Part shown: positions 37,612 to 56,161 of the stretch, one piece after another
Numbering within the stretch: position 1 is the first letter of the stretch
Layout: each line of letters opens with the position of its first letter
Assembly (NCBI GenBank): GCA_030688315.1
Contig: JAUYIT010000008.1
Span: 21,240 to 85,239 of the forward strand
Direction: 5' to 3'
DNA from: Candidatus Komeilibacteria bacterium
GTDB lineage: Bacteria; Patescibacteriota; Patescibacteriia; UBA1558; UBA10009
Length of the DNA stretch: 64,000 bases
Made by a program: the position numbers and the translations under genes
Notes under the pieces: model-generated
The model's database searches: none
Seen by the model: only the letters and a program-made list of their open reading frames with translations
Told to the model about the DNA's origin: nothing

Positions 37612-38745
37612 TTATGGTTTAACAAAGTGATCCGCGATATTATCGGTAGTAATACATTTAAAGCGAGCATTTGGGTATTTGTTTTTGAATGGAATGGGTA
37701 TCGCGGCTATTTCTTTCCACTTACATTCATAGGCAAAAATTTCTAGGCCATTTTTTTCTATCACATCAATTTCAATCCCAGTCCGTGTTCTCCAAAACAT
37801 AATTTCCGGCGGAAAAATTTCTAAAGTTCCTTTTTTCATCAGTTCCGTTACAAAAAAGTTTTCAAAAATCGCGCCCTTATCCGTCCGGGTATCCATCGAG
37901 GAAGCAATATCCACCAAGGCGTTACGAACGCCGTTATCAAGAAAGAAAACTTTAAATGCTTTTTTTAATTCAGTCCGCGGGTTATTAGAAAATGAATGGA
38001 CGCGCTTGATAATAAATGATTGCTCTAATAATCTAAGGTAGCGATTTACCGTTGCTCTGGTAACGCCCAATCCTTGGGCCAGTTCATTAACAGAAACCAT
38101 TGACCCAACCTGCAGCGCCAGCATTTTTAGCAAATCTTCAAAAATCTTGGAATCGCGGATAGCTTCAAAAACAAAAACATCCTTGTATAAATAATTGGTT
38201 ACAATGTTTTTAATGGTAAATAATTTTTCATCAATTGTCTCCGCGGCAACCACTGCCGGGTATGAGCCGAATTTTAGTAAAGAAAATAAGTCCGATTCGC
38301 TAATATTTGGATACGCCAAGCCAACTTCGCGCAAAGAAAGAGGCAGAAGTAAAAACTCATACGCCCGGCCGGTCATCGGCTCTTTTATTTTATTCGCCAA
38401 ATCAAACGAGGATGAACCGGTGGCGATAATTTGAACCCCCGGGTAGGTATCGTGAAATATTTTTAAAATACTGCCGATGTTTTGAATAGTTTGCGCTTCG
38501 TCAAAAACAACTATTTTTTTGTTTTGGGTGAGTGGTAATAACTTTTTTGGTTCGCCCAGCGAAAAATGAGTGCGGATATCAGCCAATTGGCAATCATAAT
38601 ACGCGCCTTGTTGGCCATAGGCGTCAATGATTTTTTTGGCCAAAGTGGTTTTTCCTGATTGGCGGGGACCTAAAATAACCACCATTTTACGCTTAAAAAG
38701 GACTGAAGCAATACGCGGTTCGATGTTTCTTTGGAAAATTTTCAT
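37612..38745 (-). CDS. AAA ATPase, COG1373-like (AAA_14 + DUF4143), paralog of 16509..17687
   Basis: Walker A GPRQSGKTTLA. Confidence 0.6.
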   Translation of the reverse strand: MKIFQRNIEPRIASVLFKRKMVVILGPRQSGKTTLAKKIIDAYGQQGAYYDCQLADIRTHFSLGEPKKLLPLTQNKKIVVFDEAQTIQNIGSILKIFHDTYPGVQIIATGSSSFDLANKIKEPMTGRAYEFLLLPLSLREVGLAYPNISESDLFSLLKFGSYPAVVAAETIDEKLFTIKNIVTNYLYKDVFVFEAIRDSKIFEDLLKMLALQVGSMVSVNELAQGLGVTRATVNRYLRLLEQSFIIKRVHSFSNNPRTELKKAFKVFFLDNGVRNALVDIASSMDTRTDKGAIFENFFVTELMKKGTLEIFPPEIMFWRTRTGIEIDVIEKNGLEIFAYECKWKEIAAIPIPFKNKYPNARFKCITTDNIADHFVKP

Positions 38746-39599: not shown

Positions 39600-39635
39600 A
39601 TATTTAAAATAGGTGTTTACTTCCGCAAGTCAAGG

Positions 39636-39956
39636 TTAATTGTTTAAGCCCATCTTATCAAGATACCGATTTACAACCTCCGCAACAAGATCCTGCCTGG
39701 CCTTTGCTAATATCGGAAGCGTAATAATCACGGAAGCATTATCAGTCGGTAAAAGTTCAACTTTGCCTTGATTAAAATCAGTCAGACGGGTAAGAAATTC
39801 ATCTAGCCAGGAAGGCGTTACCGTCAGCACGTCATCAAAACTTATTTGCACCGGAGTGTTGGGGTCTAATTGAGGCCGAATAGCATTAAAAGCTTCTTGG
39901 CCGGCGGGGCGTGAGACAAGGATGTTGCCGAATTTTTTAAGTTGTATAATTTGCAT
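39636..39956 (-). CDS. DUF4325 STAS-like domain protein
   Basis: 106 aa with the pattern FG..LVSRPAG.EAFNAI......PVQISFDDVLTVTPSWLDEF. Confidence 0.5.
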   Translation of the reverse strand: MQIIQLKKFGNILVSRPAGQEAFNAIRPQLDPNTPVQISFDDVLTVTPSWLDEFLTRLTDFNQGKVELLPTDNASVIITLPILAKARQDLVAEVVNRYLDKMGLNN

Positions 39957-39966
39957 ATTAATTAAT

Positions 39967-40695
39967 TTAAAAGGTTATAACACAATAAGTGCCGCGGACA
40001 TTTTGATCAGACATAGCTATAGTAAGAGTTCCGGGTTTTTTAGTTGGGACAGTTACCACCCCAATGCCTGACCGGAAAATAAGTCCAATCTCGCGTGACT
40101 CTAGTGTTTTACGAACAACCTTTAGTCCGTTGCCTCTTTTTTCCGGATTTCTGCCTGACAGAATCTCCGTAAAAGCGACCCGCAATGCTTCCAGATCATT
40201 ATCAATAGACGGCCTTACCTGCCTGAGAGTGGCTTTAACACCACGGCCTCGGTCGGCTATGACGATAGTTTTTTTATTAAGATCAAATGCGTAAAAGATT
40301 CCCGGTATATCCGGCCAATTGCCCACATTGTGGGCAAAGGAATTATCGCCAATCTCACTGGCCACAAGAGTAATAAGAGAAACCAGGTCATTAGAAAATT
40401 TTCCAGCTTGTTGTAAATTTATAGCCATTTTTTGCGCTCTGCTTGTAAACCGATCAGGACGCTCACAGTAGTATTCATCCGTAAGATCCGGCGGGATTTC
40501 ACTTGTGGCCCAAACTAATCCCAGCGCCTTGATATCTAAGGCGAATTTTTTAAGATCTATGAGTGAATAATAACGTTGGTTTCCGGGACTTCTGTGGGCT
40601 TGAAGTTTTCCGGATTTTTCCCAATTACGTAAAGTTTGACCGGATACGCCTAGTATCTGCGCCGCTTCGCTTATCCTGACTTTATTATCATTCAT
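39967..40695 (-). CDS. MerR-family HTH fused to GHKL (HATPase_c) ATPase/kinase-like domain
   Basis: N-terminal ISEAAQILGVSGQTLRNWEKSGKL (MerR HTH); C-terminal N-box SEIGDNSFAH, DRGRG and GNGL boxes. Confidence 0.6.
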   Translation of the reverse strand: MNDNKVRISEAAQILGVSGQTLRNWEKSGKLQAHRSPGNQRYYSLIDLKKFALDIKALGLVWATSEIPPDLTDEYYCERPDRFTSRAQKMAINLQQAGKFSNDLVSLITLVASEIGDNSFAHNVGNWPDIPGIFYAFDLNKKTIVIADRGRGVKATLRQVRPSIDNDLEALRVAFTEILSGRNPEKRGNGLKVVRKTLESREIGLIFRSGIGVVTVPTKKPGTLTIAMSDQNVRGTYCVITF

Positions 40696-40893
40696 ACTTA
40701 GATTAGGTTACTTTATAAGAATACAGCATAAACTTATAAAAGTCAAGTAAACTTTATAAGTTTAGTATTCAAACTTATAAAAAATCATATTTTCCAAGGG
40801 ATATTTACATTGACTAAAGATAATAATATATTGACAAACGATAAACAATGGTTTAAACTTTAGAGGTGGGTTTAATAATTAACTAAAAAACCT

Positions 40894-41382
40894 ATGGTAA
40901 AACGAAGTTCAATAATATTTCTTCAGGTAGTTATTGTGCTAATCGGCATCGGCGCACTGGCTTTGATGCTTTGGGAACCTCACCTTGAGGGCAGAAATAT
41001 AAACGCCACTAACTTTGAAATGTACTTTAAAGATCCATTCTTGGCGTATGCCTATACGGCATCTATTGCCTTTTTTGTGGCGCTTTACCAAGCATTTAAA
41101 CTGTTGGAGTTTGTAGGGCAAAACCAAGTATTTTCGGCAGCATCCGTAAAAGCTTTACGGACTATAAAATACTGCGCTATGATATTTGTCGCTTTTATTG
41201 TGGGAGCGGAAGGATACTTTTTAATTGTTCAGCGCAAAGTGGAGGAGGATATTGCCGGCGGCGTGATGATGGGGTTGGTGCTGATTTTTATTTCCGTCGT
41301 AGTTGCTACTGCCGCGGCCGTGTTTGAAAAAACTTTACAAAGCGCTTTGGAGATAAAGTCCGAAAACGACTTGACGGTTTAA
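40894..41382 (+). CDS. DUF2975 family membrane protein (paralog 1)
   Basis: 4 TM helices plus the conserved C-terminus ..LEIKSENDLTV. Confidence 0.5.
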   Translation: MVKRSSIIFLQVVIVLIGIGALALMLWEPHLEGRNINATNFEMYFKDPFLAYAYTASIAFFVALYQAFKLLEFVGQNQVFSAASVKALRTIKYCAMIFVAFIVGAEGYFLIVQRKVEEDIAGGVMMGLVLIFISVVVATAAAVFEKTLQSALEIKSENDLTV

Positions 41383-41407
41383 TGATAACAAATAATCAAA
41401 TTATTTT

Positions 41408-41890
41408 ATGAAACGTGCCTCAACCATTTTTTTAAGAATAGCCGTCATTTTTTTGGGATTGGTGGCCCTGGCTTTATACATTTTTGCCTTGCCCGCGATC
41501 TATAAAGGCGGATCCGCGGAATTTCCAATGGCGAGCCTTGCTCTATTAATAATCGTCTGTATTTTATACGCTATGGCCATTCCGTTTTTTATCGCCCTGT
41601 GGCAGACCTTAAAATTATTAAGCTATATTGATCATAATCGGGCCTTTTCCGATTTATCCGTGCAGGCCTTGAACAATATTAAATATTGCGCGAGTATTTA
41701 CGCGGTTTTGGCTTTTGTTTGCGTGCCTTTGGTAGTTCCGATTGCCGACGCGGATGACGCGCCTGGGGCCATAGTTTACGCCGCGGCGCTGGCCTGTGCT
41801 CCCGTGGCCGTAGCTGTGTTTGCGGCTATTTTGCAAAAATTGTTGCGGGAAGCGCTTGATATTAAATCAGAGAACGATTTAACCGTTTAA
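41408..41890 (+). CDS. DUF2975 family membrane protein (paralog 2)
   Basis: Same architecture; C-terminus ..LDIKSENDLTV. Confidence 0.5.
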   Translation: MKRASTIFLRIAVIFLGLVALALYIFALPAIYKGGSAEFPMASLALLIIVCILYAMAIPFFIALWQTLKLLSYIDHNRAFSDLSVQALNNIKYCASIYAVLAFVCVPLVVPIADADDAPGAIVYAAALACAPVAVAVFAAILQKLLREALDIKSENDLTV

Positions 41891-41894
41891 AATT

Positions 41895-42098
41895 ATGGCC
41901 ATTATAATCAACATTGATGTGGTGCTGGCAAAAAGAAAAATGAGCGTCACGGAGCTGGCGGAAAAAGTGGGCATAACCATGGCCAATATTTCCATTTTAA
42001 AAAACGGCAAGGCCAAGGCCATCCGTTTATCAACTTTAGAAGCGATTTGTAAGGCGCTAAACTGCCAGCCGGGAGATATTTTAGAGTTTAAAGATTAA
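41895..42098 (+). CDS. XRE-family (Cro/C1-type) HTH transcriptional regulator
   Basis: 67 aa, ..MSVTELAEKVGITMANISILKNGK.. The gene pairing with DUF2975 is conserved. Confidence 0.7.
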   Translation: MAIIINIDVVLAKRKMSVTELAEKVGITMANISILKNGKAKAIRLSTLEAICKALNCQPGDILEFKD

Positions 42099-42115: not shown

Positions 42116-42607
42116 TCAACCCTGATTGATATTAGAGTTTACTTTCTCTAAAATCTCGGTTGGGTTGAAATGTCCATGATTTTCTAATCTCAACAGTGGT
42201 AAATTTGCTTCTTTTAGAACTCTTTCAACTTCTGCATCTCTATCCTTTCGATTTTGCTGTTCGTGGGTTCGGTCGTCAAGTTCAATAGCCAGCTTTGGCG
42301 AAACATATACCTTATCACACAAAACAAAATCTACTGATTTTTGATTGATGTGACGAAAAGCTGCCCGCCAGCTTTGGCCCTTAACCTTGTTATCTATGAT
42401 TGATGGTAAGTGAACCTGGGGAAAAATGAAGTATTTTTCGCCTAAGGCGATAATCAAGGCGTCATAGCATTCATGTTCCGCTCGAGACATAAAAAACTTT
42501 TTCCGCTTATATTGGTATTGAGGGGGCTTATGTTTGTAGCCATGTGAAAGCTTGGCGAGGACAGTGATTATTATTAACACTGCAATGATTATGACGAATT
42601 TTGTCAT
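42116..42607 (-). CDS. membrane-anchored DUF2726 (restriction-endonuclease-like fold) protein
   Basis: N-terminal TM then ..SVDFVLCDKVYVSPKLAIELDDRTHEQQNRKDRDAEVERVLKEANLPLLR. Confidence 0.5.
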   Translation of the reverse strand: MTKFVIIIAVLIIITVLAKLSHGYKHKPPQYQYKRKKFFMSRAEHECYDALIIALGEKYFIFPQVHLPSIIDNKVKGQSWRAAFRHINQKSVDFVLCDKVYVSPKLAIELDDRTHEQQNRKDRDAEVERVLKEANLPLLRLENHGHFNPTEILEKVNSNINQG

Positions 42608-42786
42608 GGTTTTTAATTTCGCTGAATATAAATTTTTGCGGAGGCGTAAGCTTTCTAGATGCCACTGTGAACTCATTCTTTGACACCCAATCTCCTTACT
42701 TCTAATTTCCTCTAACTATTGTAGGGTCGAAATCCCTCCTAAACCCTTTATTTTATTGATTAAAATAGCGGCTCCTCTAATTGCCC

Positions 42787-44214
42787 CTAAAAATTTGCTT
42801 CATAGTAGGTGTGTTTTCCTGCTCCGCCTGAGTGGATAAGGCCTAATTCCTGCATCTTGTTTAAATCATAGTTGATTGTCTGTCGTGGAACAGAGGAAAG
42901 AATTTCATCACATATCCCTACTGTGATTCTTTTTTTTTCAACAAGATAATCCCAAATACGAAATTGTCGCTCATTTAACTTGCTTAATTTTTCACCAGGT
43001 AAGATCACCTTGAAACTATTAGTGGTATTTTTAAAAATTGGTTGAATCAATCCCCATTTTTCCATTTCTGTAAAAATAATATCAATACCTCTGCCATATT
43101 CTTCTAAGTAGTCAAGATCTTTTAAGCGCGCAGCTATAGTTTCGTTGCGGCTGACCTGGGCATCGCGGATGTTATCTATAGTTACTCCAGGTGGCAAACA
43201 GCCCGGGTTAAAAACTTCAAGCCTATCCTCGAATACATTGACCTGGGCGTATGTTTCGGTAATTCTATAGTCACGGTGGATAATAGCATTAGCGATAATC
43301 TCACGGATCGCCTTTTCCGGATATTCATATCTATCAACTCTTTTCGTACCGACAATTTGAGCACTTGTACGTATATTACGCAGTATAAATTTTTGCATCG
43401 TGTCAATTTGTTCATTTAACGTTCCATCTATGTCCGCCTTATCTATAATATCTGTTGCTACATTTGATCCTTTGTATTTCACACAACGAACAGTATAGCG
43501 ACTGAATGATCGTCTGAGTTGAGGCTTCTCTTTTGCAAAAATAAGAAAACCACCGAAAGTTGGAAAGTTTCCACCATCAAATGTATCGGCTATATTAAGA
43601 TTTTTAAGCAAATCAAAATCTATTTCCTCAATTCGAGCATCGCGGCTCGTCCTTTGTCCCATTCTAGACAGAAGGTCATATATTTTCTTTTCCGATAAAT
43701 CACTAAGTTGTGTATCCGGCGCTTTGGTGCTATCAAATTTTGAAAGCTTCGCGTTATCAAGAAATCGTAGCATTTCCTCATGTGTAATTTTTCTATCGGT
43801 ATTGCCATCGCGTATGTAAGCGCCATTAGGCATACCCGCATCCTTGTGATAACAAGGTTTATGCTGATCCGAACATTCAGAAATATATATAGCTAGTATA
43901 GTTTTATCACCTATGGTTATTGGAAAATACTCCGGACGAATGACAACGCTCATCTGACTACTTACTACATCACTCATTTTTTCTTGTAAAACCGCAAGCT
44001 CAGTAATTCCCGTAGCTTCCATGGAATTTTTTGACCTTTCCTCAGTAACACCAAATACAATAAAACCCCCGCCAGGATGATGAGAAAAAGAGGAAATGGT
44101 TTTCCATGTATCATGAGGGAAGCCGCCACGAGCATCTTTAAACTCAACATTGGATGTTTCCGAGCCTAATCTTATTGTTTCCTCAATGATTTGTTTAACC
44201 TTGGATTCATCCAT
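42787..44214 (-). CDS. COG2865-type Schlafen-like AlbA_2 + HATPase_c_4 + wHTH protein
   Basis: N-terminal ..ETSNVEFKD.. (AlbA_2), mid ..AIREIIANAIIHRDY.., and a C-terminal wHTH. Confidence 0.6.
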   Translation of the reverse strand: MDESKVKQIIEETIRLGSETSNVEFKDARGGFPHDTWKTISSFSHHPGGGFIVFGVTEERSKNSMEATGITELAVLQEKMSDVVSSQMSVVIRPEYFPITIGDKTILAIYISECSDQHKPCYHKDAGMPNGAYIRDGNTDRKITHEEMLRFLDNAKLSKFDSTKAPDTQLSDLSEKKIYDLLSRMGQRTSRDARIEEIDFDLLKNLNIADTFDGGNFPTFGGFLIFAKEKPQLRRSFSRYTVRCVKYKGSNVATDIIDKADIDGTLNEQIDTMQKFILRNIRTSAQIVGTKRVDRYEYPEKAIREIIANAIIHRDYRITETYAQVNVFEDRLEVFNPGCLPPGVTIDNIRDAQVSRNETIAARLKDLDYLEEYGRGIDIIFTEMEKWGLIQPIFKNTTNSFKVILPGEKLSKLNERQFRIWDYLVEKKRITVGICDEILSSVPRQTINYDLNKMQELGLIHSGGAGKHTYYEANF

Positions 44215-44479: not shown

Positions 44480-45709
44480 TTAACGCTTTTTTCTTTTCTT
44501 TTCCAAGTTTAAGTGATATTGATGAAATTTATCATCATCGCGCTCTTTATCTAGAGTCATAATTTCAAAGGTTCTGCCGCGTCGATAAGGGCCATACAAT
44601 CTTGCAAATTCGCCTTTAAATTTATCAAGGCTGTTAAATTCACTATGGTTCTTGGTTTCTTTGTTGTAATCCGGATCCCAGGGTAACCGTCCATATTCGT
44701 CCATGGCGCCGCCTGTTCCATCGTTATTCCCCCACATTATTTCACCTCCCCAATGGATTGGACGAGGGTCAGGCATAAGTAAATAACCATCGCCAAACAT
44801 ATTCCATTGGGTTGTGGATACATATTTTTCAGGGTAAAGCCAAGCTTCTTTAGCTGCCCCTATAAATTGATAAGCTCTGCGTTTTATAATATAGTTAATA
44901 TCCCATACTTCTTGTTCGGTTAAATGGCGTAAAGTTTGGATTTCGGTAAATTTAAAAATCGCTCCTCGGAATGGTTGAGCATTAGGCCTTAATGATCTTT
45001 CGGGTTGGTACGGGTTCCTAACCCAAGATAAGTTAGTGAGTATAAGTATTTTATTTAATGATAAAGGAAAAATAGTGTGGGTTGCGTTGAGCCAAATATC
45101 CGGGTCATTGGCTTCCCGACACCATTGTGAACGTGGGCCGCATACTCGATTATAGACAGTAACAGGATGATCAGAAATTATGAATTTGACATTTAATTGG
45201 GTTGCATCAGCAATTTGCCAAACACACTCAGTCCATATAGCACAATGAAGCTGCCTGAGTTTTAACATCGATTCCAATATTTGATTTTTACTAGCAGTTT
45301 TTGACTGTTCAGAAAGCCAAGCTAATCCTTTTGGCGTTCTAAGTTTCTGCGTACTCATAAACAGCATCAAATCTTCAAAAGCTTTGCCGTCAACAGAAGG
45401 GTGTTGAAAATTCGTAAAATATTCTACGGCATTTCTGCCATTTCTATCAATTTTGCCAAAAAAGTATTGTTCAATTTTTGTAGATTCAACATTTTGAAAT
45501 TGAGTAGTATAAAGATCTTTTTTGGCAAAGCAAAAATTAAAACCTTGCTTTTTAATTGGTTTACTTGGATGAGCTATGCCTCGGGGATCAATAAATTGAC
45601 CTGGTTTAAAATTCAGATAATACAGCTCGTTATCCTTTTGTCCGACCGACAAAAAGCGTTTTTGATACCAAACCGGAACATAATGATTATTTCTATATTG
45701 ATTTGACAT
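44480..45709 (-). CDS. DUF4238 family protein
   Basis: N-terminal NHYVPVWYQKRF is the DUF4238 signature (HYVPQFYLRGF-like). Confidence 0.6.
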   Translation of the reverse strand: MSNQYRNNHYVPVWYQKRFLSVGQKDNELYYLNFKPGQFIDPRGIAHPSKPIKKQGFNFCFAKKDLYTTQFQNVESTKIEQYFFGKIDRNGRNAVEYFTNFQHPSVDGKAFEDLMLFMSTQKLRTPKGLAWLSEQSKTASKNQILESMLKLRQLHCAIWTECVWQIADATQLNVKFIISDHPVTVYNRVCGPRSQWCREANDPDIWLNATHTIFPLSLNKILILTNLSWVRNPYQPERSLRPNAQPFRGAIFKFTEIQTLRHLTEQEVWDINYIIKRRAYQFIGAAKEAWLYPEKYVSTTQWNMFGDGYLLMPDPRPIHWGGEIMWGNNDGTGGAMDEYGRLPWDPDYNKETKNHSEFNSLDKFKGEFARLYGPYRRGRTFEIMTLDKERDDDKFHQYHLNLEKKRKKR

Positions 45710-46092: not shown

Positions 46093-46806
46093 TTATAAAC
46101 TCATTTGTGTCTCTTTAGCGACAGGATATAGGCCGTCTAACCTTATTTTTGCCACGATTGGATTGATATTAAAAATATCAACGATTGAATTTATTGCCAA
46201 CGCTCTTTTAGTGGGATCAAGTTGTTTAATGCCCAACAATCCGGCCTTTATTTTGTAAGGTTCTAATGCTTTTTCAAGCAACGGCCGAGGTAATAATAAA
46301 GATCCTATAACAGAATTAGCCTGAAATTCCCACCATCGTCCATCGTAAGTTTTTAAAGATCCGGAATGGTCATTTCCTGGGACGTCTCGGCATAAAACCT
46401 TTGGCCTCCGAGGGTTTTGATAATCCGCAAATAATGGCCTGCTTGATGAAAGATTGGAAAATAAATGGGTATGCAACAGACAATGCCCGGCTTCATGCGC
46501 CAAAGTACTTCTAATCCGTCTTTCTGAGGCTTGGCTATTTTCTTCATCCAAACATCTGTTTATCATCATCGCTTGAACTCCTGTTTGACTGAAAATAGTA
46601 TAACCCAGGATACTATTTTCCATGTTTTCATATTGAGGAGTAATGTTGTATTTTTTTTCAATAAACCTATCTATTCTAATCGGAGCAGGTTCAAGGGGTA
46701 ATAATTCGTTTGCTTGAAGCTCGCTAAGGCAAATACTTTCGATCTCTTGCGGAGTAAAATAAGGCCTTTCCTTGAAAGGCCCGGTATGCGCTTTAAAGGT
46801 TTTCAT
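46093..46806 (-). CDS. ImmA/IrrE family metallo-endopeptidase (DUF955)
   Basis: HEXXH-type motif LAHEAGHCLLH. Immediately downstream of and overlapping the XRE gene. Confidence 0.7.
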   Translation of the reverse strand: MKTFKAHTGPFKERPYFTPQEIESICLSELQANELLPLEPAPIRIDRFIEKKYNITPQYENMENSILGYTIFSQTGVQAMMINRCLDEENSQASERRIRSTLAHEAGHCLLHTHLFSNLSSSRPLFADYQNPRRPKVLCRDVPGNDHSGSLKTYDGRWWEFQANSVIGSLLLPRPLLEKALEPYKIKAGLLGIKQLDPTKRALAINSIVDIFNINPIVAKIRLDGLYPVAKETQMSL

Positions 46807-47147
46807 TTCTTTCGCCCTTTATTTAATTTTTTAATAATATCATCAGCGTCTGCTTTATTTTTAATATCACCCATTACTTGCCGGAAGGCAAAGCCAAATC
46901 CAGGATGAAGTTCATTCATGCGTTTTAATTCTTCAACTGGCGGCCGTGTGTCAAAAGTTAATAAATAATCAACCTTTACTTCTAATAAATCGGCAATTTT
47001 ACTTAATACATGATTGGATGGAAATCTCCTTCCTAATTCAATATCCGAGATAAAAGGAGCGGATAACTTTAATTTATCAGCGAATTCACGCAAAGAGTAT
47101 TCTTTTTTCTGCCTTAAATCCCTAATTATATTGCCTAGATTTTCCAT
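46803..47147 (-). CDS. XRE-family HTH repressor (ImmR-like)
   Basis: ..YSLREFADKLKLSAPFISDIELGRR.. 4-nt overlap with ImmA. Confidence 0.7.
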   Translation of the reverse strand: MENLGNIIRDLRQKKEYSLREFADKLKLSAPFISDIELGRRFPSNHVLSKIADLLEVKVDYLLTFDTRPPVEELKRMNELHPGFGFAFRQVMGDIKNKADADDIIKKLNKGRKK

Positions 47148-48100: not shown

Positions 48101-49444
48101 ATGCCCAAAAAGCAAAATTTTAGTAGGGACAAGTTGGACATCAACTATGTCCCCATCTCGATACTCAAGCCCATCGATCTAAATCCAAGGGTTTGGTCTA
48201 AGGATGCCATAGGTCAGTTAAAAGAGAGTATCCGTAAATTCGGAATGGTCGATCCTCTTTTAGTTAATTCAGCGCCAAATCGTAAAAACTTTGTTATTGG
48301 AGGCAACTTCCGACTTTCAATAGCAAAGGAAATGGGCATTGCTGAAGTTCCAGTGGTGTATGTCAATATACCTGATCCTGAGCGAGAAATGGAACTGTGT
48401 GTCCGCTTAAACAAAAACGTCGGCGCGTTCGATATGGATGCCTTAGCAGACTTTGGCGAGAGTTTCCTTAAAGACATTGGTTTTTCTAGTGAGGAATTGG
48501 ATTCTATCTTTGAGATTGATGAATTACCGGAAGTATTTGATTTAAACAAGGAATTGGCCAAATTGGACATTAAAAAAGTTGAGGCAAAGAAAGGCGATGT
48601 TTGGCTACTTGGTAATCATCGCCTTTTTATAGGCGACAGCATGATAGAAGAAGACATGTTGAAACTTATGGATGGCCAAAAAGCCGATATGTGTTTCACG
48701 GATCCACCATATATTTTGGACTACCTCAAGGGCAAGAAGAAAAAAGGCGAAGCAACAACTGGTTTCGGCTATAAGCGTGACCGTAGGTATTTGGAAACCG
48801 ATGTTTTGCCACCTGATTTTACCGAAAAATGGATCGGCAACGTGGCTAAAGTAGCTAAAGATGATTTCAGTATTATTATTTACGAAAACTGGAAAAACAT
48901 CAGAACCATTTGGGGTGAGATGGAGAAATACTGGAAAATCAAAAACATGATCGTTTGGCATTTACAGAATCGAACTCAGGGTTTTGCCGGTAGATACAAA
49001 TTCTTTTCCAAACATGATATTGCCATGGTTGGAACTTCGGAAAAGCAAGGCGGCCTTAACCTAAAGACAGAAGAAGAATTACTGCAAAACGAATACGAGA
49101 CCGCTTTGTACGCCATTTCCGGTCATCCGCAGTGGGAATCTTACGAGAAAGGTAAAAAATACTGCCCGACTGACTTTATTGAATACAAAGCTAGTGATGA
49201 AAAATCTTCTGGACAAGGAATTATTTTCGGCACTAAGCCCTTGGAAATCCTGATTCCTTATTTAAAGGTACTAACTAAGCGTGACCAACTAGTACTAGAA
49301 CCATTCGGTGGCTCGGGTAGCACGTTGATTGCTTGTGAAAAAATGAAACGCAAGTGTTTCTTAATGGAAAAATCTCCTGTCTACGCCGAAGTGATAAAGG
49401 CCAGGTGGCAAAAATTAACCGGCCAAAAGGCTAAAAAGTTATGA
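48101..49444 (+). CDS. ParB-like nuclease domain fused to N6-adenine/N4-cytosine DNA methyltransferase (phage-type orphan MTase)
   Basis: N-terminal ParB-like region (..ISILKPIDLNPRVW..) and a C-terminal DPPY motif (CFTDPPYILDY) with an SAM-binding region ..LEPFGGSGSTLIA. Confidence 0.7.
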   Translation: MPKKQNFSRDKLDINYVPISILKPIDLNPRVWSKDAIGQLKESIRKFGMVDPLLVNSAPNRKNFVIGGNFRLSIAKEMGIAEVPVVYVNIPDPEREMELCVRLNKNVGAFDMDALADFGESFLKDIGFSSEELDSIFEIDELPEVFDLNKELAKLDIKKVEAKKGDVWLLGNHRLFIGDSMIEEDMLKLMDGQKADMCFTDPPYILDYLKGKKKKGEATTGFGYKRDRRYLETDVLPPDFTEKWIGNVAKVAKDDFSIIIYENWKNIRTIWGEMEKYWKIKNMIVWHLQNRTQGFAGRYKFFSKHDIAMVGTSEKQGGLNLKTEEELLQNEYETALYAISGHPQWESYEKGKKYCPTDFIEYKASDEKSSGQGIIFGTKPLEILIPYLKVLTKRDQLVLEPFGGSGSTLIACEKMKRKCFLMEKSPVYAEVIKARWQKLTGQKAKKL

Positions 49445-49905
49445 GTAAGGATGAAAAGAAAAAGGCAACTATTCAGGTGAGAAAGAATAAGGATAAGCTC
49501 GCCTTACTGGAAAATCTTAAATCAATTCCAATTATTGAGGTGGCTTGTAGTAAAGCGTCAATCAGTCGAGCTACTTACTATCGTTGGCGGGACGAAGATG
49601 AGGAATTCTGTAAAAATGCTGATGAAGCAATCGCCGAAGGCGAGAAAAGGATTAATGACATGTCAGAGTCACAATTGATTTCATTAATTAAAGATAGAAG
49701 CATGCCTAGCATCGCCTTCTGGCTTCGCCATCATCATCCTAAATACTCCAATAAGTTGGAGGTGGTAGCTAATATTAATAACTCTAATCAACAATTAACA
49801 CCGGAACAACAGGCCGTTGTTGAGAAAGCCTTAACTTTGGCTTTTACTAACAATGCTGAAAATTCCGGGGAAGAAAGTAAGCAACTATATGGAACAAGTA
49901 TTTGA
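49441..49905 (+). CDS. phage terminase small subunit-like HTH protein
   Basis: HTH ..ACSKASISRATYYRWRDEDEEF.. It overlaps the terminase large subunit gene. Confidence 0.45.
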   Translation: MSKDEKKKATIQVRKNKDKLALLENLKSIPIIEVACSKASISRATYYRWRDEDEEFCKNADEAIAEGEKRINDMSESQLISLIKDRSMPSIAFWLRHHHPKYSNKLEVVANINNSNQQLTPEQQAVVEKALTLAFTNNAENSGEESKQLYGTSI

Positions 49906-51388
49906 TTCGGAAATGTTAAAACGCATTTACGAAGATGGTGCAGTGCGCAAGGCTATTGCTCGTCAAAGCCACTTCATGCACTTTAATATTTACCACGCTG
50001 GGTATATTAAATACCCAACAGCACAGTTCCAAAGAGAAATCTTTGCGATTACTGAAGATCCAACGATTAAGACAGCTGTAATCACGGCCTTCAGAGGGGC
50101 CGCTAAGTCATCTATTATCACTACCTCTTATCCCATCTGGGCAATACTTGGGTTGCCTGCTAAAAGATTTGTCGTAATAATCAGCCAAACTCAACGTCAG
50201 GCTAAACAGCACCTGCTCAACATTAAAGCGGAGCTCGAAAGCAATGAATTGTTGAAGACCGACCTCGGACCGTTTACAGAGGATCGCGGCGAGTGGGGGT
50301 CATATAGCTTAATAATTCCCGGCTATAATGCCAAAATTATGGCCGTCAGCATTGAAGAAAGTTTTAGAGGTATCAGGTACCTTGAAACAAGACCAGATCT
50401 GATTATTTGTGATGACGTTGAGGATTTGGATTCGGTTAAAACTAAAGAAGGCAGGGATAAGACGTATCGCACTTTAATGGCTGATATATTGCCCTTAGGC
50501 GACCTTGATACCAAGGTTATTATCACAGGGAACCTTCTGCACCACGATTCGTTAATAATGAGATTAAAAAAGGATATTGAAGAGGGGCGTTTTAATGCCA
50601 CCTTCAAAATGTATCCATTAATTGACGATGATGGCAAGATCTACTGGCCGGGGAAATTTCCAGATCAGAACGCCTTGATGGAATTCAAGAAAAACGTTCC
50701 CAGCGAAATTGATTGGATGAGGGAATATTTATTGAAAATCATGCCGGATGATGGGCAAGAAATTCTGCCGGAGTGGATTCACTATTATGACGAGATTCCT
50801 CATGACAAAAAGGCCTATCGTCATACTCTTACTGGAGTTGATCCGGCGGCGTCTGAAAAAACCCACGCTGATTTTACAGGTATCGTATCGGCTAGGATAT
50901 TCGGCTATGGGGCGGATATGAAAATTGTAATTTTACCTAATCCAATTAATAGAAAGATGGGGTTCCCTGAAGCCGTTGCGGAACTTAAAAGACTTTACGA
51001 TTTTAAGGACGGCGGAAAGTCCAGACGAATATTGGTTGAAGGGTATGGTTATCAAAAGGTGTTAGCTCAAATGCTTGTAAGTATTGGTATTCCAGCTCAA
51101 GAAACGATTCCCTTAGGCATGGATAAACGAGCCCGGTTAAGAATGACTTCGCAGTTTATATCTACCGGAAGGATTGTGTTTCCAAGGCACGGAGCCGAAG
51201 AGTTGATCAATCAGCTGGTTTACTTTGGGGCTGAAAAGCATGACGATTTGGTTGATGCTTTTACCCTGGTTGTTTACAAGGCGTTAGAAGAGATGAAAAA
51301 ACCTGCTGTGCCAGAAATTTGGTTTATAAATCATGGTCATTCAGGTAGAAGAGGTTTGTCTGATTTTATCGATGAAGATGATGACTAA
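49853..51388 (+). CDS. phage terminase large subunit (ATPase + nuclease)
   Basis: Walker A-like ..TAFRGAAKSS.., Walker B ..LIICDDVEDLDS.., and a C-terminal RNase H-like nuclease. The true start may be the internal MEQVF at 49889. Confidence 0.75.
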   Translation: MLKIPGKKVSNYMEQVFDSEMLKRIYEDGAVRKAIARQSHFMHFNIYHAGYIKYPTAQFQREIFAITEDPTIKTAVITAFRGAAKSSIITTSYPIWAILGLPAKRFVVIISQTQRQAKQHLLNIKAELESNELLKTDLGPFTEDRGEWGSYSLIIPGYNAKIMAVSIEESFRGIRYLETRPDLIICDDVEDLDSVKTKEGRDKTYRTLMADILPLGDLDTKVIITGNLLHHDSLIMRLKKDIEEGRFNATFKMYPLIDDDGKIYWPGKFPDQNALMEFKKNVPSEIDWMREYLLKIMPDDGQEILPEWIHYYDEIPHDKKAYRHTLTGVDPAASEKTHADFTGIVSARIFGYGADMKIVILPNPINRKMGFPEAVAELKRLYDFKDGGKSRRILVEGYGYQKVLAQMLVSIGIPAQETIPLGMDKRARLRMTSQFISTGRIVFPRHGAEELINQLVYFGAEKHDDLVDAFTLVVYKALEEMKKPAVPEIWFINHGHSGRRGLSDFIDEDDD

Positions 51389-52809: not shown

Positions 52810-55077
52810 TCAAGATTCAACGACTCTTATTTCGTCTTCAGTGAGATCATAAAGTTTATACACCAATGTATCTATTTGATGTTCGAGATCTTTGACCTTT
52901 GCTTGTTCTGCAGAATTATTCTTATATTCCGGAAGCTTGGCGATTTCTGAAATTTTTTCAACAAGATCAGTAAATGATCTTTGCTCATCGGGCAATATTT
53001 TCTTTATAGGGAACTGATCTAAATGCCTTCTTTTAACATATGGGAACACTTCCTTGTTGGTAATAAAAAATTGACTATAAATATACGTGAAGAGTTTAGA
53101 ATTTAATAGGGCTAATAGATATTCTTCTTGCACGTCCTTATCTTTAATGACAATGTTATATAAAGATTGGATAGTAAAAAACTTTTTTGTATCAAGACAA
53201 GCTGTAAATTCTTTACCAGTTTTTCTTAGAAGTATTTTTTTATCCGATAAGTATACTTTTTCATTATCATTACTATGAATTTTCTCCTTATCAAAATTTA
53301 CATAATTACCCCTATCAATATAAAACCATTTAAAAATATCTTTACCTGACAATATCGGCTTACTATTTTTAAAAATAGGGCTATCGGATATCATTTCTTT
53401 CTGACCTCCAGTCATAATCCCGATGTAATTTAAAGCTATTTTACCTAATAGTTCAGATCCTTGTTTCATCTTTTCCAAAATTGAATCTGCTATACTTCCT
53501 TTTGGAAAATCAAAAACATATTTATCATTACTTTTGTATTTATCCTGATTAATAAGTACCCGTTTTGACTTATCGAATAAATCATCGAATAAAATAGTGT
53601 TATCTGAATTATTTGGATCTTTTTGAAAAACAGAAATTATATTATCAACAATAATTCCATTAAAAATATTAGGAGGAAGTTTATTGAATATCTTTATCCG
53701 AACATTATCAAGTAAAAACTTTCTTATCTTAAAAGAATAAAAATTTGATACAAAATTCCACGGGCTTATAAAAGTTATGAAGCCGTACGTTTTTGATATT
53801 TTAATTGCCATCTCAAAAAACAAGACATATAAATCGAGTTTATCATAAGCCGATTCGAAAAGTGTTGAGTATATCTTTTTTTGAGTGTCGCTAATTTTTC
53901 CGTATTTTGTAGTTACATAGGGCGGATTTGCAATAACCACATCAAAACCGCCATTCTCTTGAAAGACTTCGGAAAAATGTAGTTTCCACAAAAAGAATGG
54001 TCTTGAGCTTTCTCTTTCTAGCTTCTGGAGTGTTGACTGTATAGCTTCTATTTGTTGGTCGGCATCCTTAATTTTCTTTTCGTCTTGAGTATTTTTCTTT
54101 ACAGTATTTAATCTTTTAATTTCTTCATCGCATTTCGCCGTTATAAAGGATTGCTCTTTTTCATCAATTTTCTGTTTTAATATGAGTTTCTTGTTTTTAT
54201 TATTTTCCTCAAAATAAACGCTATGTAATTTTTTTAGTTCAGTAAAAATATCTTCACTTTTATCTCTAAAAAGTTTTTCTTGCGTTTTTTTCTCAAAAAG
54301 ATTTTTCATCTCTTTGGTACGATGATCAACCTTAACCAAATCATCAAGATTAAATTTAATAATCGTATCACCAATAACCAAATCCTCAATCAAGCTATTG
54401 CCCTGCATTATTTTATAATCCAAGTTCGGCAATGGTTTGATTTGTTTAATATCGTCCTCGTCAACGATTAAAGAGAGCCATAAACGAAGCTTGGCAATTT
54501 CAACAGCTCCCGGATCAAGGTCAACACCATAGAGAGAATTTTGAATGCAATCACGCTTGAAGCCGTAAACCGTTCGGTCGGTATTTTTAATATAACTAGA
54601 AAGCACAGTCCGAGCTTTTACTATCTCGCTCATCATACCAACCGGAAAAGCCCCGGAGCCAATGGCCGGATCGCAAACTTTAATAGTAGCTAGTTTGTCA
54701 TCAATTTCCTCGGCAAACTTACCAATGGATTCTGGTAAAATTGATTCATACGTGCCTTTATAGCCCGGATCGTCTTCTTTTTTGGCAAGATAGGTAGCTT
54801 CGTGCTCGGCGACATTCTCTCCAAACTTAATAAGCTCCTCTAAATCTTCTTTGGAGACTTTACTCTCAAGCTCGGTTGCAAGATAATTGATCAAACTTTG
54901 TTCACACATATAGTGAACTATTTCCCGAGGCGTATAGTAGGTGCCCTTGGACTTACGGTCTTTAACTTCCAGTAAGTTCTCAAACACCTTGCCAAGCATC
55001 TCTGGGTCCACGGCTACCTCTTTTTCAAGAGGTTCGTCTTCTTTAACAGTGAAGTTGTAACGATCAAAGATGTCCAA
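52810..55077 (-). CDS. N6-adenine DNA methyltransferase, C-terminal part (NPPY motif VIANPPYV; gamma-class, Eco57I/MmeI/DrmMI-like); frameshifted relative to 55085..56161
   Basis: Motif I ..DPAIGSGAF.., motif IV NPPY, and a long C-terminal TRD-like region. The reading frame continues upstream without an ATG (TTG in the track). Confidence 0.65.
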   Translation of the reverse strand: MDIFDRYNFTVKEDEPLEKEVAVDPEMLGKVFENLLEVKDRKSKGTYYTPREIVHYMCEQSLINYLATELESKVSKEDLEELIKFGENVAEHEATYLAKKEDDPGYKGTYESILPESIGKFAEEIDDKLATIKVCDPAIGSGAFPVGMMSEIVKARTVLSSYIKNTDRTVYGFKRDCIQNSLYGVDLDPGAVEIAKLRLWLSLIVDEDDIKQIKPLPNLDYKIMQGNSLIEDLVIGDTIIKFNLDDLVKVDHRTKEMKNLFEKKTQEKLFRDKSEDIFTELKKLHSVYFEENNKNKKLILKQKIDEKEQSFITAKCDEEIKRLNTVKKNTQDEKKIKDADQQIEAIQSTLQKLERESSRPFFLWKLHFSEVFQENGGFDVVIANPPYVTTKYGKISDTQKKIYSTLFESAYDKLDLYVLFFEMAIKISKTYGFITFISPWNFVSNFYSFKIRKFLLDNVRIKIFNKLPPNIFNGIIVDNIISVFQKDPNNSDNTILFDDLFDKSKRVLINQDKYKSNDKYVFDFPKGSIADSILEKMKQGSELLGKIALNYIGIMTGGQKEMISDSPIFKNSKPILSGKDIFKWFYIDRGNYVNFDKEKIHSNDNEKVYLSDKKILLRKTGKEFTACLDTKKFFTIQSLYNIVIKDKDVQEEYLLALLNSKLFTYIYSQFFITNKEVFPYVKRRHLDQFPIKKILPDEQRSFTDLVEKISEIAKLPEYKNNSAEQAKVKDLEHQIDTLVYKLYDLTEDEIRVVES

Positions 55078-55084
55078 AATGCCA

Positions 55085-56161
55085 TCACCAATGTCGCCAG
55101 TTTTTTAAATTCTTGTGATCATTTGAAAATAAGTCGTTTGGAATATTTATTGCTGTGTTAACCCAATCATAATTATTGATCGGGTCAAAAAGACCGCCGT
55201 TCAAAAATGGAATTTTACATTCGAAACGGCTATAAAAATCATCGTCTCTTTCTTTGGCTAAAGCTTCATAAAACAACGGTTCAAGATAATCGTTAAAATA
55301 ATTTTTATTTGCGTCGCAAGCTTTGGTAAATAAAGTCCTCAAAAACCACTTATCACCATCGCCCCAGCTTTTGATCATCGGAACACCAAACCAACCTTTT
55401 TTCTGTAAGAAATATAAGAAAACAATTTGACCAAGTAATTTTTTAGAAAAGTCTACGATGTTAACATTCTTATCGGTAAAATCTTTTTTGATAGCCGGAT
55501 CATTACTAACAATATCTTCCAACGTCTCTTGAACTCTAAGGAATAGATCCCGATATTTTTCAAAAAATTCTTCGGTAACCTTTTCAATGTTAAAGGCTTC
55601 TTCAAGTCGCTTAAGCAAAGGATTATGGCTATCGTCCTCAACAATGGGAGAGAGGCGACTTTGGGCAGTATGGCTATTTTCGTTTGTACCAACTAAAAAC
55701 GACCAGCGTTTGGCTGGGGTAAACTCTTCTTTTACCTTGGCGCGTCCATTTTTGCCTTCCTCAAATTTATATTCCATCTTAACCAACGAGAAACGCCAAT
55801 CGCCGGAATCCGGAGACACAAAAGCAACTAAGGCCGCATCTTTTTGTTTTCCACCCCGACTACCATTTAAATACCAAGCAATAAAATTCCTTTGTCTCGT
55901 CCTTGCTCGTTCAAGCGTTGAATTCTTTTTTAGATGAACAATAAGGACATCAATGCTATTTTCGCCATCAAAATATTTACCGACTCTTTCAAATGTGCTT
56001 ATATATTGATCGTATGCGTCGGGAATAGTGTTTCCGCGATAAACAAAAGAAGCCTCTTCGTAAGAATTAAGGAGTTCACGGATAAATCTGATAAACTTTG
56101 TTTTATCAAAAGAATTTTGAAATACATCCTTTACCAGATTTTGTGACTGCTTTTTCTCCAT
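55085..56161 (-). CDS. N-terminal part of the same methyltransferase/restriction protein (possible PD-(D/E)xK-like region ..SPDSGDWRFSLVKMEYK..)
   Basis: It ends 8 nt before the C-part. The frames are joined by a 1-nt change in the A6 tract (plus-strand T6 at 55101..55106). Confidence 0.55.
   Translation of the reverse strand: MEKKQSQNLVKDVFQNSFDKTKFIRFIRELLNSYEEASFVYRGNTIPDAYDQYISTFERVGKYFDGENSIDVLIVHLKKNSTLERARTRQRNFIAWYLNGSRGGKQKDAALVAFVSPDSGDWRFSLVKMEYKFEEGKNGRAKVKEEFTPAKRWSFLVGTNENSHTAQSRLSPIVEDDSHNPLLKRLEEAFNIEKVTEEFFEKYRDLFLRVQETLEDIVSNDPAIKKDFTDKNVNIVDFSKKLLGQIVFLYFLQKKGWFGVPMIKSWGDGDKWFLRTLFTKACDANKNYFNDYLEPLFYEALAKERDDDFYSRFECKIPFLNGGLFDPINNYDWVNTAINIPNDLFSNDHKNLKNWRHW

Follow-up and report, generated by a model that had tools for sequence, protein, structure and literature searches.

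A candidate self-repressed gene pair of a helix-turn-helix-fused GHKL kinase and a DUF4325 STAS-like protein in Patescibacteria

The gene pair considered here, designated A and B, lies in a 64,000-nt stretch of Candidatus Komeilibacteria DNA (contig JAUYIT010000008.1, positions 21,240 to 85,239; this whole stretch is referred to as the window), and it allows the proposal of a model by which a kinase may be coupled directly to its own promoter. Gene A encodes a MerR-type helix-turn-helix (HTH) joined to a GHKL domain resembling that of anti-sigma-factor kinases, gene B encodes a small DUF4325 STAS-like protein, and the promoter in front of them is overlaid by palindromes whose form changes with the HTH. 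With slightly better than even confidence, we take A-B for a minimal form of the CapK/CapS and VapK/VapS type of system, namely a kinase/substrate signalling pair that is autonomous and self-repressed. Control of immune operons and of a toxin by GHKL-kinase/STAS-substrate pairs after DNA damage was demonstrated only in 2026 (Chambers et al., EMBO J 2026, PMC13373217), and the A-B cassette would bring this CapK/VapK-type family to ultra-small Patescibacteria, whose regulation and defence are poorly understood, in a layout comprising a kinase, a STAS protein and nothing else. New are the promoter palindromes, a matching one of which was found in each of the MerR, winged-HTH (wHTH) and XRE variants examined. 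Autorepression would provide a testable role for the kinase-borne HTH, the counterpart of which in CapK has no detectable function, and the covariation of operator and HTH, including two natural chimeras, offers a ready-made specificity map.

Gene pair, promoter and candidate operators

Both genes are read from the minus strand. Gene A (39967-40695; 242 aa) comprises, as judged from its open reading frame (ORF) and its homologues, the MerR-type HTH, a conserved linker and the GHKL domain, and gene B (39636-39956; 106 aa) encodes the STAS-like protein with its C-terminal helix. Exactly 10 nt separate them (39957-39966, minus strand; ATTAATTAAT), and because no promoter-like or terminator-like site was seen in this spacer, A and B are presumably co-transcribed. 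A MerR-HTH::GHKL fusion followed at 10 nt by a DUF4325 gene is what a first-pass annotation of the window, made from the sequence alone, had described, and the ORFs, their coordinates and the gap all hold good. A metagenome-assembled genome of Candidatus Komeilibacteria (Patescibacteria) encodes a 100% identical counterpart of each protein.

A sigma-70-type promoter precedes A (40718-40746, minus strand), with the -35 hexamer TTGACT (40741-40746), a 17-nt spacer and the -10 hexamer TATTCT (40718-40723), and two candidate operators are arranged upon it. The distal operator, O1, is a 27-bp perfect palindrome, TTATAAGTTT-N7-AAACTTATAA (40754-40780), also delimited as TTTATAAGTTT-N7-AAACTTATAAA (40753-40781), and situated just upstream of the -35. 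The proximal operator, O2 (40713-40739; 40712-40740 in the wider delimitation), repeats this palindrome with 2 mismatches at a distance of 41 bp from O1, and it takes up the -35/-10 spacer and extends over the -10. No match to the palindrome other than these two occurs in the window, against 0.07 expected. Other loci keep the two-palindrome arrangement: where the protein is at least 52% identical to A, the layout is the same inverted repeat, with the consensus TTATAGGTTT-N7-AAACCTATAA, and a subgroup with 42-50% identity has three or four direct repeats of TGCATAGTTT, one every 20-21 bp, the last of which includes the -35 and is paired with an inverted arm that lies over the -10. Head-to-tail direct repeats, as found ~20-21 bp apart in this more distant subgroup, are also what BldC binds. 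In 1.15 Mb of loci, 34/34 inverted-repeat matches and 36 of the 37 direct-repeat matches lie no more than 250 nt from the start codon of an A gene.

The type of operator changes together with the recognition residues of the HTH, which read Q-T-L-R-N-W-E and G-x-Q-R-Y-Y in group 1 and D-T-L-R-R-W-D and G-G-H-R-Y-Y in group 2. In group-1 loci, TTGAC keeps a constant distance from the operators, and two natural chimeras (L056 and L058), in which a group-2 HTH is joined to a group-1-like kinase, possess the group-2 operator. This covariation is the main evidence from which we infer that the HTH of A reads sites of the O1/O2 type, and conserved operators that follow the HTH in this way at the pair's own promoter support, at the level of sequence, the earlier suggestion that the protein may act directly on DNA. 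Since the operators overlie a core promoter with an optimal spacer of 17 bp, and not the 19-20 bp of MerR-activated promoters, repression is favoured, and MerR-style activation was considered and rejected.

When metagenomes were scanned for the perfect palindrome, 69 loci were obtained, of which 12 adjoin an A homologue, one has B only and one has an A-type operator pair before an AAA_14-type ATPase gene (L097, described with the downstream genes). The remaining loci are isolated palindromes with no second site or TTGAC, in unrelated G+C backgrounds, and no regulon is evident among them; the scan had little power, because an A+T-rich pattern of 18 bases gives such isolated matches by chance. 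At the locus with B only (L104:1867-2340, on a metagenome contig), A-type operators and a TTGACT promoter lie ~130 nt 5' of a typical B gene with no A between, and the contig terminates 160 nt beyond B. An Rfam search of the region of the pair in the window gave no match. Divergent from A are two tandem genes for DUF2975 membrane proteins followed by one for a 67-aa HTH_26/XRE protein (40894-42098, plus strand), and the DUF2975 genes and A share a 198-nt intergenic region in which the operators are contained.

Domains of A and a candidate phospho-acceptor in B

The HTH of A (residues 7-55; 40531-40677; all coordinates in this section are on the minus strand) is short, winged and of the MerR/excisionase/BldC-like kind. 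Its residues 7-43 match Pfam MerR (PF00376) above threshold (E 4.5e-12), the same match is present in 41/41 A homologues, and HTH and wing resemble BldC, Xis and RdfS in fold. An N-terminal extension of the kinase module follows (residues 56-100; 40396-40530), in which W62 and Y76-C-E-R-x-D-R-F-T-S-R86 are invariant in the A alignment, and a W...YC.TRDVF.AR version of which occurs in HTH-less, wHTH-fused and STAS-fused relatives. As just ~45 residues lie between HTH and kinase, A has no internal STAS domain. Within the Bergerat-fold ATP-binding/kinase domain (residues 101-242; 39970-40395), the N box (E114-I-G-D-N118-S-F-A-H122; 40330-40356), the G1 box (D148-R-G-R-G152; 40240-40254) and the G2 box (G188-N-G-L-K; 40120-40134) are intact, and E114/N118, D148/G150/G152 and G188/G190/L191 are invariant in 41 aligned A sequences, which bears out the presence of N, D and G boxes reported in the first-pass annotation. 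N118 aligns with the catalytic N218 of CapK, which, like the acceptor S54 of CapS, has an experimental basis (PMC13373217). An AlphaFold2 model of A (predicted local distance difference test, 80) shows the HTH, two linker helices, an alpha/beta sandwich and a disordered ATP lid, and the structures closest to the sandwich are anti-sigma Ser kinases (SpoIIAB, RsbW and UsfX). By analogy with SpoIIAB and RsbW, A is probably dimeric.

B is modelled as a STAS domain with one C-terminal helix, and its closest structures are RsbV and SpoIIAA, the STAS antagonists of anti-sigma kinases; the best structural matches of A and B are two chains of one RsbV/RsbW complex (6m36). The STAS-like fold ascribed to B at the outset is suggested by its nearest structures, although a Foldseek search against the Protein Data Bank (PDB) found nothing significant. 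Likewise, the assignment of the 106-aa protein to DUF4325 (PF14213) stands for the family and not for the single protein, as B itself scores 18.5 bits, below the Pfam gathering threshold of 23, whereas 39/41 B homologues match DUF4325 alone at E<=0.01 (best 1.2e-5). A search of the B profile against PDB sequences gave only a chance match to thymidylate kinase.

The motif P48-S49-W50-x-D52-E53-F54 (39795-39815; Ser49 codon 39810-39812) stands at the start of helix alpha2 (the model helix spans residues 48-61), and P48, S49, W50, D52 and E53 are invariant in 83/83 homologues, among them partners of HTH-less kinases, with F54 kept in 82/83. HMMER and hhalign (E 8e-4) both place Ser49 on Ser54 of CapS. 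A conserved phosphorylatable serine, which the proposal of a kinase/STAS switch calls for, is therefore present at the N-terminus of alpha2. Trp50 of B sits where Trp68 of CapK and Phe54 of VapK sit, aromatic residues of the kinase-internal STAS domain that have been implicated in the sensing of single-stranded DNA (ssDNA; PMC13373217).

For comparison by sequence, hidden Markov models (HMMs) of the kinase family (102 representatives) and of the STAS family (84 B homologues) were scored against CapK, CapS, VapK and VapS, taken from the source files of PMC13373217, and against SpoIIAB, RsbW, RsbV and SpoIIAA of Bacillus. The kinase-family HMM gave 24.2 bits for VapK (E 2e-9) and 15.6 bits for CapK (E 9e-7), against 4.3 for SpoIIAB and 3.9 for RsbW, and the STAS-family HMM gave 20.2 bits for VapS (E 5e-8) and 11.4 bits for CapS (E 3e-5), against -0.5 for RsbV and -1.3 for SpoIIAA. 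Since both A and B are closer to them in sequence, CapK/CapS and VapK/VapS are a better reference than RsbW/RsbV. The frame of RsbW/SpoIIAB and STAS antagonists, in which the pair had been placed initially, remains the nearest by structure and gives way by sequence.

The resulting model proposes that A, as a dimer, would bind through its MerR-type HTH to O1, which abuts the -35, and to O2, across the spacer and the -10, and would thereby repress the A-B promoter. The GHKL domain of A would bind B and phosphorylate the invariant Ser49 with ATP, as homology to VapK/VapS and CapK/CapS suggests, and unphosphorylated B would serve as a co-regulator of A on DNA. Upon activation of the kinase by a stress signal, which by analogy may be ssDNA from DNA damage or, alternatively, ATP/ADP, B would become phosphorylated, the complex would break and the promoter would be de-repressed. 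The output would be transcriptional, acting on the cassette itself and on co-directional downstream genes (in the window OmdA, NUDIX and the PDC-S01 ATPase), and a small number of solo operators at other places in the genome may belong to it. A bolder version, which we consider speculative and rather unlikely, takes the cassette for a self-contained mobile stress sensor in which the alternative partner of the kinase is DNA and not a sigma factor, the binding of operator and of B is coupled, and B supplies the sensor STAS domain (with W50) in trans, acting as receiver and as substrate or antitoxin. Such a cassette would serve as a switch for defence or dormancy, specific to Patescibacteria and lacking a separate effector gene, and if a stand-alone switch or a toxin system of this kind proved true, it would represent a new, effector-less architecture.

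It may be asked whether phosphate is transferred at all, or whether A is an ATP-binding transcription factor that senses nucleotide, with B as a stoichiometric partner and its serine as a structural helix cap. SpoIIAB/RsbW-type proteins also act by nucleotide-dependent binding, the conserved P-S-W motif could be structural, and the STAS domains within CapK and VapK keep the aromatic residue but lack the serine. However, the catalytic boxes are all invariant, including the Asn equivalent to CapK N218, the serine is invariant in 83/83 partners, and homologous pairs do transfer phosphate (PMC13373217), which makes this explanation distinctly improbable in our view.

Distribution, modularity and genomic context

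Homologues were detected in numbers of 859 for A and 383 for B, mostly 60-80% identical and from many Patescibacteria lineages, and the pair was found almost only in Patescibacteria. Its distribution is patchy, an A relative being encoded by 286 of the 185,579 species genomes in a survey of one genome per species. Neighbourhoods were analysed in the best 80 loci, 77 of them with downstream DNA, and B follows A on the same strand in 77/77, at a spacing of ~10-45 nt in most, so that the conserved linkage looked for at the outset was found in every informative locus. Clustering of all neighbouring ORFs in the 80 loci yielded no third conserved gene, and the flanks vary (ribosomal protein genes, recombinases, Fic, restriction-modification genes). 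No relatives were found in IMG/VR, among INPHARED phages or among PLSDB plasmids, which gives no support to an origin from phages or plasmids. One locus (L080:5852-16746) contains a 4,997-nt tandem duplication of the whole A-B cassette and three neighbour genes, the compared 300-nt copies being 96% identical.

Neither a sigma factor gene nor a VapC/PIN toxin gene was found in the 80 loci. The former result bears on classical partner switching, by which A would serve as anti-sigma factor to a sigma factor whose gene lies elsewhere, B as its antagonist, and the HTH as a means of autoregulation only. The top structures are indeed those of such modules (SpoIIAB, RsbW and UsfX for A; RsbV and SpoIIAA for B), but a linked sigma factor gene is lacking in the 80 loci, A and B are much nearer in sequence to VapK/VapS and CapK/CapS, neither of which acts on sigma factors, and the kinase module is repeatedly fused to DNA-binding domains. 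We hold this explanation to be very improbable.

The extent of such fusion is seen from a phmmer search with the kinase module alone against 1.84 billion representatives, which found only 280 clusters at the cut-off of E<=0.001. Among the best 150 of these, 56 consist of the kinase module only (~190-200 aa), 29 carry a MerR HTH, 48 are fragments and 17 have other N-termini, including CapK-like wHTH, XRE HTH and Xis-type HTH; a cytidylyltransferase-like N-terminus among the 17 is probably a spurious fusion, and P0386, distant and not counted in the 17, bears a STAS N-terminus like that of VapK. Each of the HTH-less P0242, the wHTH P0246, the XRE P0279 and the STAS-fused P0386 is followed by a protein with DUF4325 or the PSW motif. 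As judged from these sequences, fusion of the kinase module with DNA-binding domains of MerR, wHTH, XRE and Xis type has occurred independently, and because the wHTH variant and the XRE variant each have a palindrome of a different sequence across the promoter, repression of its own gene by a DNA-binding domain on the kinase appears to be a recurrent design. Two of the variant loci have distinctive settings. At one (L081:3187-5974), an HTH-less kinase (194 aa) and a DUF4325 protein (87 aa) are encoded between peptide deformylase (def) and methionyl-tRNA formyltransferase (fmt), genes that are normally adjacent. At the other (L083-L086, e.g. L083:4001-5111), a STAS-GHKL fusion (273 aa) and a DUF4325 protein (92 aa) end a type IV secretion/conjugation cluster and adjoin diversity-generating-retroelement-like RVT_1 and bAvd genes, with no PIN gene present.

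Portability of this kind is also a property of toxin-antitoxin or abortive-infection systems, and A could be a kinase that is toxic through phosphorylation of host proteins, with B as a pseudo-substrate or decoy antitoxin and the HTH providing the usual autoregulation. The pair is autonomous, with two tightly spaced and apparently autoregulated genes in variable contexts, an HTH-less copy lies between def and fmt, a 5-kb duplication of the pair occurs in one locus, and patchiness (286/185,579 species genomes) is combined with 60-80% identity across distant Patescibacteria lineages; further, the closest relative of B to have been characterised, VapS, acts as an antitoxin (PMC13373217). However, a DNA-binding domain on the putative toxin and a putative antitoxin gene in second place are the reverse of the usual type II layout, the virus, phage and plasmid collections gave no relatives, and PADLOC matched neither catalytic part. 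We know of no GHKL Ser-kinase toxin. In VapKSC the toxin is the PIN protein and not the kinase (PMC13373217), and a toxin-antitoxin role for A-B is, on the whole, improbable.

In the window, the next five genes after B are co-directional, the first starting 37 nt after B, and no terminator-like site was seen between B and this gene on that strand. Among the downstream genes are OmdA, NUDIX and, three genes from the pair on the same strand, an AAA_14/DUF4143 ATPase (37612-38745, minus strand) that matches PADLOC PDC-S01, a candidate single-gene defence system, with E 4e-121. These features would suit a portable stress-responsive promoter module that switches on a downstream accessory or defence gene, here OmdA, NUDIX and the PDC-S01 ATPase, as do CapK/CapS, which precede diverse immune operons (PMC13373217). 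The defence island around the pair (a CapH/CapP-like pair, type IIG, Schlafen/AlbA_2 and DUF2726 proteins) points the same way, as do the A-type operator pair that precedes a related ATPase gene at L097 with no A, and the mostly accessory nature of downstream genes at other loci (RecQ/PsyrT-like, PD-(D/E)XK nuclease, DNA alkylation repair, Fic, DpdF, reverse transcriptase). However, the gene after B is co-directional in 45/67 loci (67%), below the 76% background for neighbouring genes, and convergent in 22 (33%); no downstream family recurs, ten tightly following genes being mutually unrelated (including SLT, DNA-alkylation repair, methyltransferases, cyclodipeptide synthase, TrmB, RecQ, PD-(D/E)XK nuclease and C39 peptidase); PADLOC matches among 130 downstream neighbours are scattered, with no defence enrichment; and B is separated from the next gene by a promoter-like site. 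Because the downstream genes are heterogeneous and the PADLOC matches scattered, the pair does not appear to be a dedicated controller of one operon, and control of an adjacent pathway is a possible but unlikely function.

The promoter-like site, TTGACT-16-TATTTT (39606-39633, minus strand), stands directly after the B stop codon and ends ~6 nt short of the start codon (ATG, 39599) of the OmdA/YdeI-like gene. That gene may have a leaderless transcript, or the match may be due to chance. A 41%-identical copy of the PDC-S01 ATPase lies ~7 kb from the pair at L061. At L097 (1111-2756), an A-type palindrome, a degenerate second operator and a -10 are found upstream of a gene for a 486-aa AAA_14-like ATPase, 23% identical to the PDC-S01 protein of the window, with neither A nor B present; either a target regulated in trans or a scar left by loss of the cassette may account for this locus.

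The placement of the pair at the edge of an accessory region is reasonable, because from ~35 kb onwards the window has lower G+C (falling from ~0.45 to ~0.38, and to ~0.28-0.31 in places) and defence and mobile genes, which, together with phage-like genes, form a defence island around the pair. At 42116-44214 (minus strand) are genes for a nuclease-like DUF2726 protein and for a protein of 475 aa that combines Schlafen/AlbA_2 with HATPase_c_4 and gives weak PADLOC matches to pAgo-associated models. At 46093-47147 (minus strand), the gene for a 114-aa HTH_3 protein overlaps the start of that for a 237-aa protein that matches PADLOC capP (E 3.7e-11); the two look like a CapH/CapP-type controller upstream of a DUF4238 gene (44480-45709, minus strand), and they would give the island a second controller of this adjacent-pathway kind. 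At 52810-56161 (minus strand), two ORFs with 7 nt between them apparently make up a divided type IIG restriction-modification enzyme, the 358-aa ORF corresponding to PDLC03596 positions 1-354 and the best stretch of the 755-aa ORF to positions 487-646, which reflects either a frameshift or a genuinely split enzyme. Genes for a ParB_N-N6/N4 DNA methylase, a small terminase-small/transposase-type HTH protein and a 511-aa ORF with no Pfam match (48101-51388, plus strand) may be a phage or mobile-element remnant. At other loci (L013, L014, L035, L061, L072, L046, L062, L001 and L025), DNA-repair-type genes (AlkD-like DNA alkylation repair, RecQ, PD-(D/E)XK nuclease, exonuclease III) lie a few genes from the pair, which fits a role related to DNA damage, in counts too small to test.

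The pair among known kinase/STAS systems

Several observations weigh against the reading of A-B as a self-repressed kinase/substrate pair. On the side of the proteins, HATPase_c_2 scores 12.3 bits on A (E 0.18) against a gathering threshold of 27.4 and matches just 21/41 A homologues even at E<=1, and A beyond its HTH matches no Pfam, NCBIfam or PADLOC model at threshold; PADLOC and NCBIfam, run on A and B, gave only HTH-level matches, such as mad1, HspR and IS607, and nothing for the kinase domain or B. The Foldseek search with the B model returned no STAS fold, CapS and VapS entries being absent, and hhalign of B against RsbV and SpoIIAA was not significant. In an ungapped alignment, Ser48 of VapS falls on Pro48 of B and not on Ser49 (S-P against P-S), which leaves the acceptor position uncertain by one residue. 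On the side of the mechanism, deletion of the CapK HTH gave no phenotype (PMC13373217), and the ssDNA signal is not simply transferable to A, because A has no internal STAS domain. No phosphatase family recurred in the 80 loci, PP2C phosphatases not having been searched for specifically, and in 22/67 loci no output beyond self-regulation is visible, since the next gene converges on the pair. The proposed DNA binding, repression, contact of A with B, kinase activity and phosphotransfer, signal (ssDNA or energy state) and output are all deduced by comparison.

Of the systems to which the pair may be compared, SpoIIAB/SpoIIAA and RsbW/RsbV share with A and B the Bergerat Ser-kinase fold, a STAS or STAS-like partner with an acceptor serine (in B a candidate one) at the N-terminus of alpha2, and adjacency of the two genes. 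They differ in that A-B has no linked sigma factor (80 loci), no significant sequence similarity to them and an HTH fused to the kinase, and the Pfam HATPase_c_2 and STAS models that describe those modules are not reached by A and B. With BldC, excisionases and recombination directionality factors, and MerR regulators, A shares the MerR-type HTH and wing. MerR regulators differ in that A has no coiled-coil or effector domain, a kinase module following the HTH instead, as well as in the promoter spacing described above.

CapK (HTH-STAS-GHKL) is activated by ssDNA and phosphorylates Ser54 on helix alpha2 of CapS, a repressor of STAS-wHTH architecture, and the two precede very diverse immune operons, over which they exert DNA-damage-activated control; the HTH of CapK has no known role, and the internal STAS domain forms the ssDNA-binding groove of both CapK and VapK (PMC13373217). 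Like A, CapK carries an N-terminal DNA-binding domain on the kinase and is followed by the gene for its STAS substrate, palindromic operators and autoregulation at the locus are common to both systems (putatively so for A-B), and the wHTH-fused relatives of A resemble the CapK N-terminus. However, CapK has three domains, whereas A lacks the internal STAS domain; the repressor CapS carries a wHTH, whereas B has no DNA-binding domain and the HTH, of MerR type, sits on the kinase; the aromatic equivalent of CapK W68 is on B (W50) and not on A; and CapK sits upstream of an immune operon, whereas A-B has no consistently associated one downstream. The host range of A-B is Patescibacteria, and the terms MerR, Patescibacteria and Parcubacteria are absent from the text and supplementary files of PMC13373217, as is DUF4325 from the main text.

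By sequence, VapK/VapS are the closest characterised relatives of A/B. VapK (STAS-GHKL) phosphorylates the antitoxin VapS (STAS plus a C-terminal helix) and thereby frees the PIN toxin VapC (PMC13373217), with which the report of an older survey that PIN genes are 'transcriptionally coupled to DUF4325' is in agreement. VapKSC differs in being a three-gene operon with the VapC/PIN toxin, whereas A-B loci have no PIN gene, in VapK's N-terminal STAS domain, which is replaced in A by the MerR HTH, and in the acceptor motif, P-S-W in B against S-P-F in VapS; P0386 has the VapK-like STAS-GHKL layout yet no PIN neighbour. The likeness extends nevertheless over both proteins and their order. The kinase HMM matches VapK over its whole GHKL domain, the N box EI..NSF.H is shared with the A family, the STAS HMM matches VapS from residue 1, and VapS, like B as modelled, is a STAS-only protein of ~105-116 aa with a C-terminal helix and a conserved serine starting helix alpha2, encoded directly after the kinase gene.

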